Below are positions 55,899 through 64,000 of a stretch of 64,000 bases of DNA, one piece after another. This DNA is from an uncultured Chloroflexia bacterium (GTDB lineage: Bacteria > Chloroflexota > Limnocylindria > Limnocylindrales > CSP1-4). Numbering within the stretch: position 1 is the first letter of the stretch; the number at the start of each line of letters is the position of its first letter. The notes beneath the pieces are model-generated. The model was not told the DNA's origin and ran no database searches. It saw only the letters and a list, made by a program, of their open reading frames with translations. The stretch spans positions 544,001 through 608,000 of the forward strand of contig CAWFXA010000002.1 in the NCBI GenBank assembly GCA_963819655.1. The letters are read 5' to 3'. A program made the translations under genes and the position numbers.

Positions 55899-56585
55899 TC
55901 AGAACCAGCGGCGCCTGTTGTCGGACGGGGAGCGACGCTCGTCGTTCGGGAAGCCGCCCGGTCCGATGAGCGGCACGAAGACCACGGCGCCATGGGGCGT
56001 GTCGCGCCAGTCGTCGCCGTGGCGGACGACCAGCGTCAGGATCTGGTGATCGCGTGGCCCGACCGGGATCACCAGCCGCCCGCCGTCGGCGAGCTGGTCG
56101 CGGAGCTCGGTCGGGATCGACGGTGCCGCCGCCGTCACGATGATCCCGTCCCACGGCGCGCCGCCGGGGTCTCCGAGGCTGCCGTCGGTCGTCCGGATCA
56201 TGACCGTGCCCGGCAGATCGAGCGCCGCGATCCGCTCGCGGGCCTTGTCGGCGAGCACGGCGTGCCGCTCGAGGCTCGTTACGTCCGCACCCAGCGCTGC
56301 GAGGATCGCGGCCTGGTACCCGGACCCCGTGCCGAGCTCCAGGATCCGCTCGCCCGGTTGCGGCGCGAGCAGCTCCGTCATCCGTGCCACGACCCACGGC
56401 TGGCTGATGGTCTGGCCGGCGTCGATGGGGACGGCTTCGTCAGCGTAGGCGCGATTCTGCCGGTCGCTGCCGAGGAAGTGGTCCCGCGGAACATCGGTCA
56501 TCGCGCTCAGCACGCGCTCATCGCGGATGCCCCGGGCGCGTAGCTGGTCCTGGACCATGCGCCGCCGATCATCGTCAGCGCCCAT
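55899..56585 (-). CDS. pcm: Protein-L-isoaspartate O-methyltransferase
   Basis: GQTISQP, LELGTGSGYQAA, APWDGIIVTAAA, GGRLVIPVG, VFVPL. Confidence 0.93.
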   Translation of the reverse strand: MGADDDRRRMVQDQLRARGIRDERVLSAMTDVPRDHFLGSDRQNRAYADEAVPIDAGQTISQPWVVARMTELLAPQPGERILELGTGSGYQAAILAALGADVTSLERHAVLADKARERIAALDLPGTVMIRTTDGSLGDPGGAPWDGIIVTAAAPSIPTELRDQLADGGRLVIPVGPRDHQILTLVVRHGDDWRDTPHGAVVFVPLIGPGGFPNDERRSPSDNRRRWF

Positions 56586-56624: not shown

Positions 56625-57257
56625 TTAGGACGCGCTCGGTGAGGCGCTAGCCGCCGGCGTGGCGCTCGGGGCGACCGATGGAGCCGCGCTCGGGCTTGCC
56701 GAACCGCTTGGGCTCGCCGATCCGCTTGGGCTCGCCGATCCGCTTGGGCTCGCCGAACCGCTCGGGCTCGCGCTCGCACTCTCGCTGGGGCTCGCCGACG
56801 GGGTCGGGGTCGGCAGCGGACGCAGGAGGCCGCCACTCCCCAGCAGGATGCCGTTCAGCAGGATGAGGACGAAGACTGCGACCGTCCCGATGACGAACCA
56901 CTTCGAAACGTCGTCCTTGACATGGACCGCGATCTCGGATGGCGAAGGCGCCCGAGTCGCCGGGGTGGTGGTGCCGCTTCGGCGCTTGGCCGCCGACGTC
57001 CGCCGCTCGGCCGCGGCAGGGACGGCCGCGTCACCGCCGATCTCGCGGACCGCGGCATCGTAGTCGTCGATGTCCGCCTCATCGGCCTCGATCGCTTCGG
57101 TCTCCGCCTCGTCGAGGAGCTCTGCCTCGATCGCGTCGGCGTCGACGTCGTCCGGCCGCTCGCCACCGTCGTCATCGAGCTCGTCATCGATGTCTTCAGG
57201 GTCGTCGTCGATCGGCTCGAGCGGTTCCTCGGGCGCGCCGTCACGGGGTTCGGTCAC
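56625..57257 (-). CDS. Bitopic membrane protein: D/E-rich N-terminus, one TM, S/P/A-rich repeat tail
   Basis: Composition of the ORF translation. Confidence 0.75.
   Translation of the reverse strand: MTEPRDGAPEEPLEPIDDDPEDIDDELDDDGGERPDDVDADAIEAELLDEAETEAIEADEADIDDYDAAVREIGGDAAVPAAAERRTSAAKRRSGTTTPATRAPSPSEIAVHVKDDVSKWFVIGTVAVFVLILLNGILLGSGGLLRPLPTPTPSASPSESASASPSGSASPSGSASPSGSASPSGSASPSAAPSVAPSATPAASASPSAS
56688..56771. repeat. 18-bp tandem repeat, about 4.7 copies, encoding GSASPS
   Basis: GCTYGGGCTYGCCGAWCC units. Confidence 0.85.
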
Positions 57258-57338: not shown

Positions 57339-59381
57339 TCAGGCCTCGCGGACCGCCGGCACGAACCAGCCCGCCAGCCCCGCCACCGCGGTGACGATGC
57401 CGAACGCCGCGATGACCGTCGTGACACCGATGACCTCGGCGAGCACGCCACCCAGCCCGATCGCCAGCGTCATCGCCCCGAAGACCAGGGAGAAGCGGAA
57501 GCCGATCACGCGACCGATGAGGTTGGGCGGCGTCCGCTCCTGGAACAGGGTCTGGCTCGGGATGATGAAGACCATGTTCGCGATGCCGATGCCGAAGGCG
57601 ATCGCCAGGACGACGCCGAGGTTGTCGGACAACGCCATGAGTGTCGTGAGCAGCCCGAGCACGGTGTAGCCGGCGATGATCATCCGGCCCTTCGCCAGCC
57701 GCGCGCCGATCAGACCGATCACGAACCCGCCGATCAGGTTGCCGGCACCCTGACTGCCCTCGATGAAGCCGTAGACAGCCTGCCACTCGAACCCCTGGCT
57801 GCCGAAGACGCGCTCAGCGAAGACCGCCGTCTGGCCGATGAGCACCCCGATCGTCAGCTGCGCGACGACCGCCTGTAGCGTGTTCGCCAGCAGGACCGGT
57901 TCGTTGCGCAGGAAACGCCAGCCCGCCACGAGCTCGCTGCGGAACCCGGTCGATGCCGGTTCGCCGTTCGCATCCTCGGTCGCCGGGCGCGGCATCGGCC
58001 GCGGGATCAGCGTGCTCAGCAACAGCGCCGAGGCGAGGTAGGTCGCCCCATCGAACCAGAACGCGACCGACACGGCGTTGGCGACCAGTGCGACGAACAG
58101 GCCGGCCAGCGGGAACCCGATGACGTCGGCGATGGTCTCGCCGACCCACAGCGCGGAGTTCGCCGTCAGGAGCTCATCCTCGCGGACGAGTCGCGTCAGG
58201 ATCGCGACCCGCGCCGGCCGGAAGAAGATCGAGATCGTGGTCAGCAGGAACACCAGCGGGTAGACGAGGAAGATGTTGGTCGACGCCGCGATCGGCATGA
58301 TCAGGACGACCGCCGCACGGAGGATGTCGCTGACGACCAGCACTTCACGGTGGTCCCAGCGATCGACCAGCGTGCCGGCGAGCGGGCCGAAGAAGAGGTT
58401 CGGCAGGGTCGCGGCGACGAACACGAGCGCGACCGCGATCGGCGAGTCTGTGACAACGAAGACGATCGCCGCGATGGCGACCTGGTGGACACGATCGCCG
58501 AACAGGGAGATGAGCTGGCCCGACCACAACGCGGTGAACGATCCATTCAGCGCGAGGCGGACGTACGGATGCCGTCGGAGCCGTGCCACGACCTCCGGGG
58601 AGAGGCGTGGGATCGGCAGCGTCGGCGCCGTGGATAACCCGGGCGCGCCACCCGTGCCCGGTCCACCGCCACCGACGGTCGAGGTCCCCGGCGCGGCCAG
58701 TTGTTGTCGCCCGGTGCCGAGGACGGTCGGTCGATCGAGCGCCGCGGATCGCTCGAGACCGGGCGTCAGGCCCGTGATGCCTCGCTCGCCCGCCAGTCGC
58801 CGCCGGAGCTCGGCGTCCTCCGACTCCTCGGTCGGTGTCGGGACGCGCACGACACCGGCAAACAGGAAGAACGCGAGCCCGAGCGTCAGGAACACGTCGC
58901 CGAGCGAGTACACGTTGCGGATGACAGCGACCGGCACGGGTATGACGTCGCCGAGGATCAGCAGACGTCCGAGGAAGTCGGGCGAGGCGGCATCGACGAC
59001 CGTGTGGAATGCCCGGTCGACGTCGGCCTCGGTCAGACCGGCCGCGACAAGGGCCGGCTGCCAGATCGGCATGAAGCCGTTGTTCGCGACGATGACCAGC
59101 GTGTTCGTCAGGACGCCGAGGAATGCCAGGCTGAGGCCCGGGTACGAGCGATTGACCCAGAGCGCCACGAGGAGCACGACGAACGCCGCGGTGAGCAGCG
59201 GCAGCCGGAATGCCTCGACGATGCCGATGTGCGCGCCGAGCGCCCACTCGGTGGCGTAGCGCACGACGACGGCGGCGACGAGCAGCCACGTCCAGCGCAG
59301 CTGGATCTCGGCGAGGTTCCGGAGCCGCCCTCCGGCGAGGAGACCGAGGACTAGCCCGAGCAGGATCCCGCCGATCAGCAT
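57339..59381 (-). CDS. DUF5317 domain fused to a DHA3/MFS_3-type transporter
   Basis: N-terminal GGRLRNL...N.LVIVANNGFMP...LGDVIP...YSLGD (DUF5317 pattern); G/P-rich linker; LWSGQLISLFGD, GPLAGTLVDRWDHR, QERTPPNLIGRV. Confidence 0.82.
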   Translation of the reverse strand: MLIGGILLGLVLGLLAGGRLRNLAEIQLRWTWLLVAAVVVRYATEWALGAHIGIVEAFRLPLLTAAFVVLLVALWVNRSYPGLSLAFLGVLTNTLVIVANNGFMPIWQPALVAAGLTEADVDRAFHTVVDAASPDFLGRLLILGDVIPVPVAVIRNVYSLGDVFLTLGLAFFLFAGVVRVPTPTEESEDAELRRRLAGERGITGLTPGLERSAALDRPTVLGTGRQQLAAPGTSTVGGGGPGTGGAPGLSTAPTLPIPRLSPEVVARLRRHPYVRLALNGSFTALWSGQLISLFGDRVHQVAIAAIVFVVTDSPIAVALVFVAATLPNLFFGPLAGTLVDRWDHREVLVVSDILRAAVVLIMPIAASTNIFLVYPLVFLLTTISIFFRPARVAILTRLVREDELLTANSALWVGETIADVIGFPLAGLFVALVANAVSVAFWFDGATYLASALLLSTLIPRPMPRPATEDANGEPASTGFRSELVAGWRFLRNEPVLLANTLQAVVAQLTIGVLIGQTAVFAERVFGSQGFEWQAVYGFIEGSQGAGNLIGGFVIGLIGARLAKGRMIIAGYTVLGLLTTLMALSDNLGVVLAIAFGIGIANMVFIIPSQTLFQERTPPNLIGRVIGFRFSLVFGAMTLAIGLGGVLAEVIGVTTVIAAFGIVTAVAGLAGWFVPAVREA

Positions 59382-59414: not shown

Positions 59415-60816
59415 TCAGGCCTGCTCGGGTGCCTGGGAGGGGACCGGCAGCGAGCCGGTGGCGGGCGGCTCGGCGAGCCGCGTGGCGGCCGCCTGACCGA
59501 GAAGGGGGATCGGTCGCGGCTGGACGGTGCGCCCCGGATCCGCCACGCCTTCGACGTGGTGGGTCTTGACGAACGCATCGACCACGACCGGATCGAACTG
59601 GATGCCCGCGAACTTGCGCAGCTCGGCGAGTGCCTGCTCGGCGCTCAGCGGCGTCATGCGATACGGCCGGGCGGCGGTCATCGCCTCGAATGCGTCGGCG
59701 ACGTGCAGGACGCGGGCGAGCTTCGGGATCTCGTCGCCCATGAGGCGGTCGGGGTAGCCGGAGCCGTTGTACCACTCGTGGTGGTGGCGGATGATCGGCA
59801 GCTCGGGAGCGAGCTTGGTGACCGGCGCGATGATCTGCGCGCCCAGCACCGGGTGCGCATTCATGATCATCCGCTCGTCCTTGTTCAGCCGCTCCTGCTT
59901 CAGCAGCACCCGGTCGGGGACGCCGATCTTGCCAACGTCGTGGAGCAGGCCGCCCCACTCGAGCGCTTCCAGCTCGCCATCGTTGACATGCATCACGCGC
60001 CCGATGTCGACCGCGATCTCCTTGACCCGGTGGCTGTGCTTCGCCGTGAACGGGTCGCGTTTGTCCACTGCCTCGGCCAACGCGCCGATCGTCTGGGTGA
60101 ACATCTCGCGCATCTCGATGAAGCGCGCATACGCAAGCCGGGTTGAGTACAGGGGAACCGCGAATAGAGCGGTCGCCCACCATTGGACTGCGTAGACCAC
60201 AGTCATTAGCCAGGACAGTGGCGCCAGGGCGACAACGCCCCCGAGAATCCCGCGAATGTCACCAAGGAGCACGTCTCGAGGCGACTGTCCCGTTCGGAGA
60301 CCAAGTGCGATCGAGACGAGCACCAGATTGAGCGCGATAAAGAGCAGCGCGGCGGCCATGCCAGACGCGAAGTCCCAGGCAAGCCGCCCCCAAGGGTCAG
60401 CAGGACCTCACGCAGGGTCCCGGCGAGGATCGCAGGTACGACCAAAGCTGCGTGATTGGCAAGCGTCCCGTACCAAGGAATGCGACCTCGGATCTCGCGA
60501 AGTTCGGTTGTACCAATGGCGGCAACCCACCCAGCGACGGCGGGCCCGCCAAGGAATAGCGAACCCATGATTGGAGCAATCGCAACGGCCTGTTGCGTTC
60601 CACGAGGCAGCTGTACGGGGAAGGCAGACCCAATAGGGTAACGACAATCCAGTGACAAGACGCCAAGCGCGAATTCGGGAGCGGTTGGAGCGCCACTTGA
60701 GCCCGGAGCGCAATCGCGATCGCGGGCTTGGCGGGAAACAGAAATGTCGCGGCCACCAGCGCGAACGCACCGATGACCACGACGGTCGCGACGTAGAGCT
60801 TGAGGGACTTCGGCAT
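59415..60816 (-). CDS. HD-GYP c-di-GMP phosphodiesterase with N-terminal multi-TM sensor (MASE-like); frameshifts near 60380 and 60660
   Basis: DPFTAKHSHRV, LLHDVGKIG, HHHEWYNGSGYP, VADAFEAMT..RPYR, QFDP; hydrophobic N-terminal frames starting MPKSLKLYV. Confidence 0.88.
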
Positions 60817-60884
60817 CGTTCCTGGATCGGCCACCGACCTCACTCTACGGCCAACGCCGCGAGCAGGGTAATGGGCCATCCGTA

Positions 60885-60974
60885 CTAGAAGCCCCTAAGA
60901 GAAGCCCCTCCGGCAAGCGCAATCATCGCCACGCTCGTGAGCGTGACGATGATCCGCATCAAACGGACCTTCAC
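60885..60974 (-). CDS. 29-aa signal-peptide-like small ORF, putative signalling-peptide precursor
   Basis: GTG start with AAGGA SD: MKVRLMRIIVTLTSVAMIALAGGASLRGF*; basic N-region, hydrophobic core, LAGG, short polar/aromatic tail. Confidence 0.7.
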   Translation of the reverse strand: MKVRLMRIIVTLTSVAMIALAGGASLRGF

Positions 60975-61050
60975 TGGAGGGTCCTTACCAGGCCTTCGCG
61001 GACTCGGGAGCCACGGACGTTCCTCCTTCGCGGCCTCCGTGCTCTGAGGA

Positions 61051-61085
61051 ACACGAAAACCGACCTGACTACCAGTCGGTCGGTT
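61051..61085 (-). terminator. Riboswitch expression-platform terminator
   Basis: AACCGACC-GACT-GGT-AGTC-A-GGTCGGTT then TTCGTGTT; the 5' arm overlaps the aptamer 3' end. Confidence 0.75.
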
Positions 61086-61146
61086 GCACTAGTCGCTCCG
61101 CCGCACCCTAAGTGCCCATTTCAGGTGCGGCATCGCTGCGTCCGGT
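61077..61146 (-). promoter_or_regulatory. c-di-GMP-II riboswitch aptamer
   Basis: CCGG-ACGC-AGCGATG-CCGCACCT-GAAA-TGGGCACTT-AGGGTGCGG-CGGAGCG-ACTAGTGCAACCGA-CCG matches class II hallmarks (kink-turn GA pairs, GGGCAC/GTGC pseudoknot, AGTGCAACC). Confidence 0.85.
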
Positions 61147-61161
61147 ATTGACGATTACTTC

Positions 61162-61221
61162 CTAGTACTGGGGTACTAGTAAGTTGGCCGGACTTTAGGT
61201 ATCCGCAAGTAGACCGGTCAA
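61162..61221 (-). promoter_or_regulatory. Promoter plus perfect palindromic operator candidate
   Basis: TTGACC-N18-TAAAGT, followed by CTAGTAC-CCCA-GTACTAG (61162-61179). Confidence 0.55.
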
Positions 61222-61242
61222 TACGGCACCTTACCTATCTGT

Positions 61243-64000
61243 CTAGAGCGATTCGAGGGGCGGTGGCTCCACGCCCATCTCGTCCCGCATCACAGCGGCG
61301 TAGTGCGCGTACTGCTCCGCGGCCGCGGAATGAGCGCCCGTCACGCGATACAGCCGCAACAGGCATACCTCGATCTGCTCGGCAGTCGGATCAACTTCCA
61401 ACGCTCGACGCGCGATCGTGATGCCGCGGTCGTAATGGCCCGAGGTGAAATCGTCGAGGACGGAACGCTCAACAATCTCTAGGTACGTCGCATGGAGGGT
61501 GTCGCGATACGCGGCCGCCCATTCCTCATACTCAAAGTCGAGCGCGAAACGGCCACGATAGAGCTGCGTTAGGCGATCTACTTCGTCGGGGCTCGGTCGA
61601 CTCGGCAGGTCTCGAAGTAGGTGCCGGCACTCGACACTGCGGCTTGAAACCAGCTCCGAATCAAGCCAGACCACGTCCGAGTCGTGGTGCACATAGCCAG
61701 GAGAAAGGTCGTCGGAGTAGTTCTCTTCAAAGACTCGTCGTAGGAAGTAGACGTCTGGTTCAGGGAGTTGACCGCTACCTCAGGGTCAAGTTCGGGCCAC
61801 AGCGCATCAAGGACTTGGTCACGCGTGGCGATCAGATCGGGGCGCGTGATCAGATAGCTGAGCATGGCCAATACTTTTCGCCGGATTGCTGGAACCAAGG
61901 ACAATTCGGACTCCCGATTTCCAGCGAGATCCGACCTTGATCCTCTACTTTCACAGTATCCGCGAGCCGTCGCGCTAGCGAGCGACCCAAGATTGCCGCG
62001 TCCGGACGTCGGTCGGGCGGAACGGCGAGACGACGAAGACGTGACGATGTCGCTGCGATCGCCGATGGACTCGAGTAGCCGTGCCGCTGGCAGATTGAGA
62101 TCGCGAGTGTCCTGATCCAGCCCCTGACGAAGGGCAGTGCGCCAGCGGTCAGGGTGTAGGGCAGTCGTTTGAGGAGACGAGACTAAACGTTGCCGCCTTC
62201 AGGTTCGGCAGGTGTGGAATCAAATCCTCCGCCAGGAAGCTCAGGTGCCAAGGCGACGATTGGCCGATCACGTCGATGGTTCGATGAGCTCGTCGGGACC
62301 AAGAACGGTCGAAAGGAGGAGTTCGCCCGTTCGTCGGACGCCGGTCGCACCCTGTGCAGCGGCAAAGTCTGTCGAATCGCGCAGCAGTTGGTCGATCGCC
62401 GAGCGATCACCTCGGAGAAGCGCTAGGTGGGCCTTTGTCATTCGAATGCGGACGTGACACCAACGACGGTCGGGAGTCCTGTGGGAAGGCAGTCGACTCC
62501 CGCTCGCACCAGGTGTCGCGATCGCCGTATTGCCATTCTCGCTCAGCTAGGGCCAAGCTGCCGGCGGTCTGCGACTGTGTGGGTTGAATGAGTCACCAAC
62601 TCGATCGAGAACGTCATCGCGACGAGTCGGGACGCAGAGCGAGTCGAAGGCTTCGGCCGCGTCCGCGAAGGCCTCGGTGGGGATGTACCGCGAGGCATCA
62701 GAGGTCATTCCAGAGACAAGGTCAGTGCCTCTGGTTGCTGCCTTAGTCGCAGAAGGATCGACGCCTGCAAGGACACTAGCCGCCGAGTGCTCGATCGCCC
62801 CCGTCGTCCCTTCAAGGGCCTCGAGCGCCGCTTCTGCGGCCTCTTCGAGTGCGTCATCGGTTCGATCCTGAACGAGCGAGTTCAACGCGAGGTTGAGCAT
62901 GGTGACGCCGTAGTGGTGACAGCTGTCACACGTTGTACCTGTGCCATGGCGCGGAGTCGACGATTGATCGCGTCCAGGTCTTCTCGTCTTTGGACGATCA
63001 AGGACGATATCGGCGACCTCCGCTATAGCACGCAAGTTTGGGTCAGCTGTTAACGCGGCCAAGCTTCGTCGACCAAGTCCAGGGCAGTTCTCCGTTTCCG
63101 AAGTTGAAGTTGACGAGCGTGATTAGGTTGAGCAGCGCGTGGTCTCGCTGCATGGGGTCGGTGACGCCCGAGTCGAGGACGGCTTGGCTCGCGGTTATCG
63201 CCGCTTCGTAGTCGCCGTGCTGCATATCGACCCGGCTGATGATCAGGTCGAAGCCGGGCGGTCGCTCGTGCGCCGAGATCGGGCCGATGAACGCCTCGGC
63301 CAAGGCGTATTGGCCATTCCCCATGATCGTCGGGATTGCGCCGGCGACCACGCCGAGCATCGCCTCGATATCGCCCGCCTCGCGATAGTGATGTGCCGCG
63401 ACCTTCCAGTCGGTGGCAGCCGCGGCCGCCGCCGTCCTGCGGTGGAGTGCCGCGACGGCGTCGGGCCCGTCCATCGACCGAAAGCGCGCCTCGAGGAACC
63501 CGCGAACCAGCGGGTGGTAGCGCTGGTGGGTCCGCGGACCGCCGGACAGGCGGCTGAGTAGCGTCAGACGTTCTGCGGCTGCCGTCAGTCGAGCGACATC
63601 GGCCGAGTCACGGCCCGACGCGACTTCGGCGAGCTCCGGTGTCACCACCTGCAGGATCGAGGTCTGCATCAGGAAGCGCTGCAGATCCTCCTCGAGGTCT
63701 CCGACGACCTCCTCGGCGAGATAGTCATACAGCTCGTGGTCCGCTCCGGTGAGAGTCCGGACGAAATGGCGGATCTCGGCCGGCGACCGATCGCGCAGCG
63801 CCGCCTGGACGAGTTGGAGCGATGCGATCCATCCCTCGGTGCGCACGGCGAGGTCGGCGAGGACATCGGGATCGATGCGCCGGCCATACGTCTCGGTGAA
63901 CAGCTGGGCGGTTTCCGCAACATCGAAGCGCAGCTGGTCGGTGCCGAGTTCGGCGACATCGCCCACGGCGCGCAGCTTCGAGAGCGGGATCGCGGGCGCA
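61243..64000 (-). CDS. Large MalT-like STAND regulator with TPRs and C-terminal SARP/BTAD domain; frameshifted, 5' end outside the window
   Basis: LRFDVAE, TEGWIASLQL, LYDYLAEEV, RYHPLVRGFL; TRDQVLDALWPE, LYRGRF, ALEVDPTAE, EMGVEP. Confidence 0.8.

Follow-up and report, generated by a model that had tools for sequence, protein, structure and literature searches.

A conserved fusion of DUF5317, a possible LspA-like two-aspartate membrane module, to a DHA3-type transporter in a micropeptide operon of Chloroflexota linked to cyclic di-GMP

In peptidase-containing ABC (ATP-binding cassette) exporters (PCATs), a C39 cysteine peptidase domain is fused N-terminally to the ABC transporter. Peptide cleavage of another kind is carried out by the lipoprotein signal peptidase LspA (MEROPS A8, PF01252; structures 5DIR, 6FMS, 9EMZ, 6RYO, 6RYP), which, in the excerpts of the published account on which we draw (PMC6952399), consists of four transmembrane (TM) helices with a β-cradle between H1 and H2, and carries a catalytic Asp pair about 18 residues apart (S. 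aureus Asp118/Asp136) toward the outer membrane surface. The same excerpts list, as other conserved residues of the S. aureus enzyme, Asp21, Lys25, Asn52, Gly54, Gly102, Asn106, Asp109, Arg110, Val116, Phe132, Asn133, and Ala135, and give the lipobox as [L(VI)][A(STVI)][G(AS)]C, ending in the diacylglyceryl-Cys (PMC6952399). In this report we focus on a gene on the minus strand of a 64,000-nucleotide stretch of an uncultured Chloroflexia bacterium (assembly GCA_963819655.1, contig CAWFXA010000002.1, positions 544,001 to 608,000; hereafter the window), whose product joins a domain of the family DUF5317 (PF17248) to a transporter of the major facilitator superfamily (MFS). An original prediction made from the sequence alone had proposed that this domain might be an LspA-like intramembrane aspartyl peptidase fused to an exporter. 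We find that the fusion is real and old, and that its gene lies in an operon headed by a riboswitch for cyclic di-GMP (c-di-GMP) and by two conserved micro-open reading frames (micro-ORFs). Our favoured reading, held tentatively, is that DUF5317 is an LspA-like, peptidase-type module for the micropeptide of this operon, coupled to export and to c-di-GMP turnover.

The first important finding is that the two domains belong to one intact and recurrent protein. The original prediction had described an in-frame fusion of 680 amino acids with no frameshift, and indeed 57339..59381 (-) is a single unbroken ORF of that length, with no indel reported in this interval among contigs of related strains. 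Residues 25-173 match DUF5317 in Pfam over profile positions 1-150 of 151 (88.3 bits, cut-off 25, E 6.7e-25), and residues 280-673 match both MFS_3 (88.1 bits, cut-off 27, E 6e-25) and MFS_1 (86.6 bits, cut-off 33.4, E 2e-24). The top NCBIfam model for the MFS part is the DHA3-type TIGR00900, at 185.8 bits under its cut-off of 319.6; the protein thus belongs to the superfamily and to the Pfam families and falls outside this NCBIfam subfamily. More generally, its last 400 residues match the models of DHA3-type exporters (TIGR00900, with Mef, Tet(V), Tap, EntS, the ryptide exporter, and LplT as NCBIfam neighbours) with E-values from 1e-54 to 3e-6, but they score under all of the family cut-offs, so that no substrate can be assigned, and none of these models includes an N-terminal DUF5317. 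A phmmer search of 1.84 billion cluster representatives returned 2738 relatives of DUF5317 at E<=0.001, many of them 600-726 amino acids long with the domain at the N terminus, and all 10 of the long representatives scanned combine DUF5317 with MFS (one of them, which may be chimeric, also has a Metalloenzyme domain). In a word-index search, PF17248 and MFS families occur together in 119 of the best 120 of 619 longer homologs. Where they are named, the long fused homologs come from Candidatus Limnocylindrales or Chloroflexota. Within the phylum, 48 of 151 genomes encode the family. In the class of the window, 12 of 14 genomes contain an open fused frame of 660-753 amino acids, a spread that linker length probably explains; in the other two, the gene is cut by a contig end or standalone. 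This bears out the conservation in relatives that had been proposed as a check on the fusion. Outside this class, the DUF5317 proteins of the phylum are standalone, with open frames of about 190-260 amino acids, and two further standalone copies are present in the window's own genome. In four public runs, contigs of related strains together cover the junction of domain, linker, and MFS, with the whole gene in no single contig; the exact stretch was found in none of the public runs searched (best word share 0.27), nor was any RNA run found. More widely, source names of DUF5317 proteins point to Chloroflexota and Clostridia/Bacillota, and the matching control genomes include Thermus and Thermotoga. 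Neither DUF5317 nor PF17248 was named in any paper of the literature searched. One DUF5317 protein of 198 amino acids (P0289) has a precomputed match to PF26083 that our local Pfam copy does not report.

The second finding is that DUF5317 has a small set of nearly invariant polar residues, predicted to gather at one face of the membrane. The motifs on which the original prediction rested, G89-x3-N93 in TM4 and two Asp 17 residues apart in ILGD145VIP and VYSLGD162, are all present in the sequence, and both the G-x3-N motif and the Asp pair are features of the family, more than chance. In an alignment of 25 diverse sequences, D145, N93, and N100 are invariant, while G89, S159, G161, and D162 are conserved in at least 90%; in a larger set that is dominated by close relatives, Asp is found at the position of D145 in 233 of 235 proteins and at that of D162 in 222 of 223. 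An AlphaFold2 model of the domain (mean pLDDT 94.7, pTM 0.87) shows helices at residues 2-15, 31-49, 59-76, 83-99, and 160-178, four short strands in the 100-160 loop between TM4 and TM5, and just a short helix (53-57) in residues 50-58, the loop that follows the first core helix. In this model, D145 opens a strand (145-149) and D162 opens the last helix (160-178) directly after the partner strand (156-159), and therefore the two Asp, as judged from the modelled secondary structure, should lie close together in space. Since the N terminus of MFS transporters is cytoplasmic, the C terminus of TM5 would be inside, which would place D145, D162, N93, and N100 at the outer leaflet, as in LspA.

This arrangement resembles that of LspA. 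Both are small polytopic proteins with an Asp pair 17-19 residues apart that lies near the outer surface, in DUF5317 by prediction. In both, the first Asp stands in a hydrophobic, strand-like x-x-D-[IVF], and the second opens the last helix and is followed by x-x-[IL]-x-x-G. Each of 139 DUF5317 members was also compared singly with all 24,736 Pfam models (E<=1), and Peptidase_A8 (PF01252) emerged as the top non-self family, with sub-threshold matches in 22 of the 139 (best E 0.0022; the runner-up family matched 4 members). A paralog from the window's own genome aligns through residues 77-167 with positions 82-139 of PF01252, that is, with the catalytic half of the enzyme (E 0.0098). An hhalign comparison of the 139 DUF5317 sequences with 24 LspA sequences of the phylum (one of them, also used in the local profile below, from a genome flagged as unpublished, G038) produced 157 collinear columns with a score of 28.2 (P 0.0022), against 17.0 and 19.2 in controls with one side reversed. 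It sets TM2-TM5 onto H1-H4, LTDIF onto VVDFI, and FSIGD onto FNiAD, so that the Asp pair falls on the catalytic dyad, a register that was already the second alignment when a smaller set was used. N156, which is Asn in 201 of 224 aligned proteins, may correspond to LspA Asn133. A wide VIA search of 48,161 chains with the AlphaFold2 model listed both LspA representatives, confirmed as lipoprotein signal peptidase, 5dir_A at rank 19 (Z 5.1, root-mean-square deviation 2.8, 92 aligned residues, 17% identity) and 6ryp_A at rank 30 (Z 5.0, root-mean-square deviation 3.1, 93 aligned residues, 19% identity), which have the highest identities in the list; the ends of the aligned ranges fit D162 on Asp143 (Asp124/Asp143 in P. 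aeruginosa, a numbering taken from the alignment). There are also differences. DUF5317 has five helices rather than four, no β-cradle after the first core helix, and about 40 extra residues between TM4 and the first Asp, and its gene context is c-di-GMP signalling, whereas that of LspA is lipoprotein maturation.

The third finding is the operon itself, whose riboswitch, micropeptides, and HD-GYP partner had escaped the original prediction (Table 1). As in other c-di-GMP-II riboswitch operons (RF01786), a full-length aptamer with an overlapping terminator-like hairpin stands at the operon head, and the hairpin might work as an ON switch; the aptamer is found at the gathering score in the upstream regions of 6 of 10 class relatives. 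The particular gene set, with two micro-ORFs, a membrane HD-GYP protein, and DUF5317-MFS, is not described in those parts of the literature found on c-di-GMP-II riboswitches and HD-GYP proteins that were available. Micro-ORF A ends in K-G-W or K-G-F in 5 of 6 riboswitch-bearing upstream regions of relatives, and no recognisable copy is present in L147. The peptide of micro-ORF B begins with basic residues, continues with a hydrophobic core, and ends in IALAGGASLRGF, with a Cys-less lipobox, L-A-G-G-A-S. In 8 aligned orthologs, A24, G26, and A27 are invariant (A-x-G-A), and this invariant motif is written with different codons. Substitutions peak at codon position 3 (437 versus 327 and 205), with 210 synonymous codon differences; micro-ORF B is under coding selection. 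Of 10 class relatives, 7 have its strict motif in the upstream region, as against none of 122 reversed-sequence controls. Standalone DUF5317 genes have a similar neighbour: a signal-peptide-like micro-ORF ends 6-122 nucleotides upstream in 11 of 26 loci, with a tail of L-[AG]-[AGS]-G-A-P plus 4-9 residues, and a stricter filter retains 6 of the 26, compared with 0 of 30 LspA loci. The candidate substrate of DUF5317 would thus resemble that of LspA, as known from the excerpts cited above, in being a signal peptide with L-A-G at -3 to -1; L-A-G-G reads as their lipobox with Gly in place of the lipidated Cys. The motif has no Cys either in the operon peptide or in those of the standalone loci, and almost nothing follows the Gly. 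A complex prediction for a cognate DUF5317-micropeptide pair from one genome gave weak support, with an ipSAE of 0.47 (0.55, 0.44, and 0.47), whereas the best control stood at 0.00; the runs shared at least 95% of contacts, and the partner pLDDT was at least 71.

Table 1. Features of the DUF5317-MFS operon and its upstream neighbour, in window coordinates
Feature	Position	Strand	Details
DUF5317 domain, residues 1-177	58850..59381	-	5 TM helices; small β-sheet in TM4-TM5 loop; conserved N93, N100, D145, S159, G161, D162
Gly/Pro/Thr/Arg-rich linker, about 100 residues, presumably cytoplasmic	58545..58849	-	no Pfam match
DHA3-type MFS transporter domain, residues 280-680	57339..58544	-	Pfam, NCBIfam
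Membrane-anchored HD-GYP (HD_5) phosphodiesterase gene, split over three frames	59415..60816	-	HD_5 E 3.6e-38
Micro-ORF B, 29 codons from GTG (24 from internal ATG), signal-peptide-like, ends IALAGGASLRGF	60885..60974	-	ortholog alignment
Micro-ORF A, 9 codons, MAPESAKAW, GTG start, preceded by GAAGGAGGA	60985..61014	-	8-10-residue peptides in relatives
Terminator-like hairpin overlapping the aptamer 3' end, candidate expression platform	61058..61081	-	8-pair stem, then T-rich tail
c-di-GMP-II riboswitch aptamer RF01786	61071..61152	-	62.2 bits (gathering score 53.5), E 2.8e-12, full model 1-84
Sigma-70-like promoter candidate, 5' of the riboswitch	61192..61221	-	TTGACC-18-TAAAGT, 9/12; 1 site versus 0.4 expected; consensus match only
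SARP-type regulator (Trans_reg_C + BTAD), apparently split over two overlapping frames	61243..61904	-	BTAD E 3e-14; Trans_reg_C E 0.0028 (under cut-off)

Another significant finding is that DUF5317 is recurrently paired with membrane-bound enzymes of c-di-GMP turnover. In the window, the HD-GYP gene is directly upstream of DUF5317-MFS. An intact ortholog of 470 amino acids matches three segments, each in its own frame (60810-60631, 60634-60413, and 60374-59418), with frame changes near 60632 and around 60375-60412; contigs of related strains have one extra base at the same two places (60382 and 60633), and the breaks therefore reflect either an indel error of the assembly or a strain-specific pseudogene. 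An HD-GYP homolog abuts DUF5317, in its fused and standalone forms, at 17 of 32 loci of the phylum. A second DUF5317 subfamily, to which the own-genome paralog in L002 belongs, is preceded by a membrane GAF-GGDEF-EAL protein at 52 of 80 loci, and at some of these DUF5317 copies stand on both sides. The related loci retrieved were mostly from Chloroflexota, and the pairings hold for this phylum. A pair of DUF5317 genes, in tandem or with the GAF-GGDEF-EAL gene between them, is present in L094, L114, L127, L128, and L137, and also in L104, L117, L118, L121, L122, and L100. Both partner types have unannotated N-terminal membrane domains of 6-8 helices, whose mutual similarity is weak (26% over 148 amino acids, E 2e-4). 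MASE9 was rejected as an identity for the HD-GYP membrane domain, being sub-threshold on the window's fragment (E 0.0032) and absent from three intact orthologs at E<=0.01. A riboswitch of another class, c-di-GMP-I-GGC (RF03167), is directly 3' of standalone DUF5317 in two loci (L002:2085-2162 (+), 65.8 bits; L064:1278-1355 (-), 64.5 bits), and in L002 it precedes an OmpR-type response regulator. As for the surroundings of the operon in the window, the SARP-type regulator gene, a doubtful member of the module, is directly upstream of the riboswitch promoter candidate. GC content falls to 0.58-0.64 across 60000-63000. On the other side, 3' of the fusion, 56625-57257 (-) encodes a protein of 210 amino acids with a very acidic N terminus, one hydrophobic helix, and repeated SPSGSA units in its tail, for which Pfam returned no match, and it is followed by a PCMT methyltransferase gene at 55899-56585.

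The link with the transporter is not restricted to the fusion. In L054 and L060, from another lineage of the phylum, a separate MFS_3 gene (461-465 amino acids) ends 3 nucleotides before standalone DUF5317, and the L054 protein is 30% identical to the MFS domain of the window (E 7e-46). In both loci the order is MFS_3, standalone DUF5317, and an AI-2E-family transporter (PF01594), at L054:316-3417 (-) and L060:316-3432 (-). The existence of two arrangements, fused and adjacent, argues for a functional link between DUF5317 and MFS rather than an accidental fusion. This invites an analogy with PCATs, in which there would likewise be a leader-cutting domain, here putative, at the N terminus of an exporter, with small peptide genes beside it. 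However, the peptidase would be of another class and fold, the exporter is MFS rather than ABC, and the putative active site would be on the outer instead of the cytoplasmic side; what is known of the present system comes from sequence and model. The C39 plus ABC signature of PCATs is absent, the fusion showing just DUF5317 and MFS families in Pfam at E<=0.1.

How might these parts work together? In the reading that we tentatively favour, DUF5317 would be a five-helix module of the inner membrane, with an LspA-like Asp pair, near the outer face, on its last two helices and their connecting loop. Micro-ORF B would insert as a signal peptide, bringing L-A-G-G-A-S to the level of this Asp pair, and DUF5317 would most likely bind and probably cleave it at or next to the Cys-less lipobox, L-A-G|G-A-S, which would set free some 7 residues as an extracellular peptide. 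The fused DHA3-type MFS may export a leaderless twin with a similar tail, the micro-ORF A peptide, and the membrane domain of HD-GYP is a candidate sensor. Because a c-di-GMP-II riboswitch and a membrane HD-GYP protein occur in the same operon, peptide handling would be coupled to c-di-GMP turnover: if c-di-GMP binding blocks the terminator, the operon would be on at high c-di-GMP, and its phosphodiesterase would then lower c-di-GMP.

Several results weigh against this reading. To begin with, homology of DUF5317 to LspA is not statistically solid. The domain of the window has no match to PF01252 or TIGR00077 even at E<=10 (Pfam, NCBIfam), the best DUF5317 member scores 16.5 bits on PF01252 against a cut-off of 25 (TIGR00077 gives P0149 7.9 bits against 73.95), and the 22 members that match PF01252 are interrelated and so not independent. 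The hhalign probability of the large-set alignment is just 12.8%, and with 59 DUF5317 sequences the alignment was in a different register (22 columns, 8.5% probability, TM1 GLLAGGRLxNL against LspA GLLLGGAxGN), which we rejected as a low-complexity coincidence. A local hidden Markov model (HMM) built from the 24 LspA sequences reached at most 9.5 bits on 367 DUF5317 domains in the forward and 4.7 in the reversed direction, which is not significant, and the family HMM run against PDB sequences at E<=10 returned no LspA and only a chance carbamate kinase match (E 0.37, 0.97). Foldseek against the PDB, one of the checks proposed for the LspA-like reading, had a best E of 1.4, to rhodopsins, with LspA not among the matches listed; an ESM Atlas look-up returned no usable match. 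The Z of about 5 in the VIA search is inside the stated helical-bundle background, and for a second model (P0131, 31% identical, pLDDT 89.9) the top 50 VIA matches are helical-hairpin matches to residues 19-80, with no LspA among them, so that the fold match of the first model is not robust. Among the LspA residues in the excerpts cited above, neither the D-x3-K in H1 nor the β-cradle N/G has a counterpart in the conserved DUF5317 columns, which also lack GN-x2-DR. The evidence on the micropeptide is subject to similar reservations. The GGDEF-EAL-linked subfamily keeps both Asp, yet the strict micropeptide motif is found within 4 kb at 0 of 80 loci, and small residues conserved after a helix might just as well be the signature of a stable single-pass subunit. 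Of 80 solved complexes, 58 reached the complex-prediction mark, as did 2 of 110 mismatched pairs, and the score obtained here falls in the weak band (<=0.60), which held just 7 of the 80 and both mismatches.

What remains of the LspA-like reading in the original prediction is the conserved Asp pair and G-x3-N motif, together with a weak but recurrent similarity to the catalytic half of LspA in the proposed register. Its GN parallel was not upheld, since hhalign does not place G89-x3-N93 on Gly102/Asn106, and, with no A8 HMM match for the domain of the window, five helices, and a negative Foldseek result, DUF5317 is not a member of peptidase A8. In our reading it has an LspA-like two-aspartate module, possibly owing to very remote homology, in an otherwise different architecture. 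Two kinds of candidates were rejected along the way. GxGD-type proteases (presenilin/SPP, prepilin peptidase), raised by the S-x-G-D motif, were in the top 50 of neither VIA search, with no profile test run. Weak PF01252 matches were also noted in the genomes G028, G016, and G040, and those in G028 and G040 are short divergent LspA-like paralogs, not DUF5317. Short divergent LspA-like paralogs (CGN...GYATDW...LTNVAD) under the PF01252 cut-off are encoded at L034:451-981 (+) and L036:582-968 (+), in genomes that also have a normal LspA.

The main rival is a non-catalytic one, doubtful but deserving attention, in which DUF5317 would act as a membrane receptor or an accessory subunit: its polar Asp/Asn cluster would bind the micropeptide or some other cue, periplasmic or lipid, the signal would pass to the multi-helix membrane domain of the neighbouring c-di-GMP enzyme, and the MFS would be a further input or output. 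The family is associated most strongly and most broadly with membrane c-di-GMP enzymes, HD-GYP and GGDEF-EAL alike; their N-terminal domains are weakly alike in the two partner types, the genes abut, which suggests co-translation, and the GGDEF-EAL subfamily retains its Asp pair with no micropeptide encoded in cis. Stable binding is compatible with the complex prediction, and all of the evidence for LspA homology is sub-threshold. However, a near-invariant acidic pair predicted at the outer membrane boundary, in an LspA-like local context, is more typical of catalysis, and the micropeptide resembles a signal peptide, its small-residue motif being of the cleavage type and its tail very short. 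The same Asp/Asn cluster might instead bind a cation or proton, making DUF5317 a small ion- or lipid-handling modulator of the fused or adjacent MFS and the micropeptide a regulatory small protein, as for other pumps and sensors. We consider this quite unlikely: although the two gene arrangements with MFS, the AI-2E-family transporter that follows in L054 and L060, and conserved polar residues at one membrane face would suit it, most DUF5317 members have no MFS partner, being standalone outside the window's class in the phylum, the recurrent Pfam signal is to a peptidase and not to a transporter, and neither VIA search returned a fold match to ion-binding membrane modules.

Two further explanations carry very little weight. 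That DUF5317 could be a true, divergent signal peptidase II for ordinary lipoproteins is suggested by its weak PF01252 matches and by the JGI name "lipoprotein signal peptidase" on P0277, from a Clostridia-type lineage, but this name is automatic, with no curated LspA model matching the protein at E<=10. A canonical LspA (125.1 bits) is already encoded in the window's genome and LspA is found in 40 of 41 genomes of the phylum searched, and DUF5317 is therefore not the housekeeping enzyme; its patchy occurrence in the phylum, the failure of A8 models and architecture, and an associated peptide with no lipobox Cys make this identity highly improbable. Least credible, to the point of being negligible, is an assembly or gene-calling artefact that joined two separate genes. 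Frame breaks do occur nearby in the same assembly, in the HD-GYP and SARP genes, but they stand against hundreds of full-length fused homologs from independent sources, the fused frame in nearly all genomes of the class, and the absence of any indel within the ORF in the contigs of related strains.

Beyond the reading that we favour lies a broader one that we consider unlikely, namely, that DUF5317 founds a family of LspA-related intramembrane aspartyl peptidases that mature micropeptides with Cys-less lipoboxes to extracellular signals of 7-9 residues. The membrane domains of HD-GYP and GGDEF-EAL proteins would then sense these signals and set c-di-GMP, the riboswitch would close the loop, and the MFS of Limnocylindria-type Chloroflexota would export the leaderless twin. 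If DUF5317, which is widespread, proves to be an LspA-like peptidase for micropeptides with Cys-less lipoboxes, it would represent a second branch of an enzyme family that is both very small and a target of antibiotics, add a peptide layer to c-di-GMP signalling, and provide a first example of an MFS exporter with a built-in processing domain.

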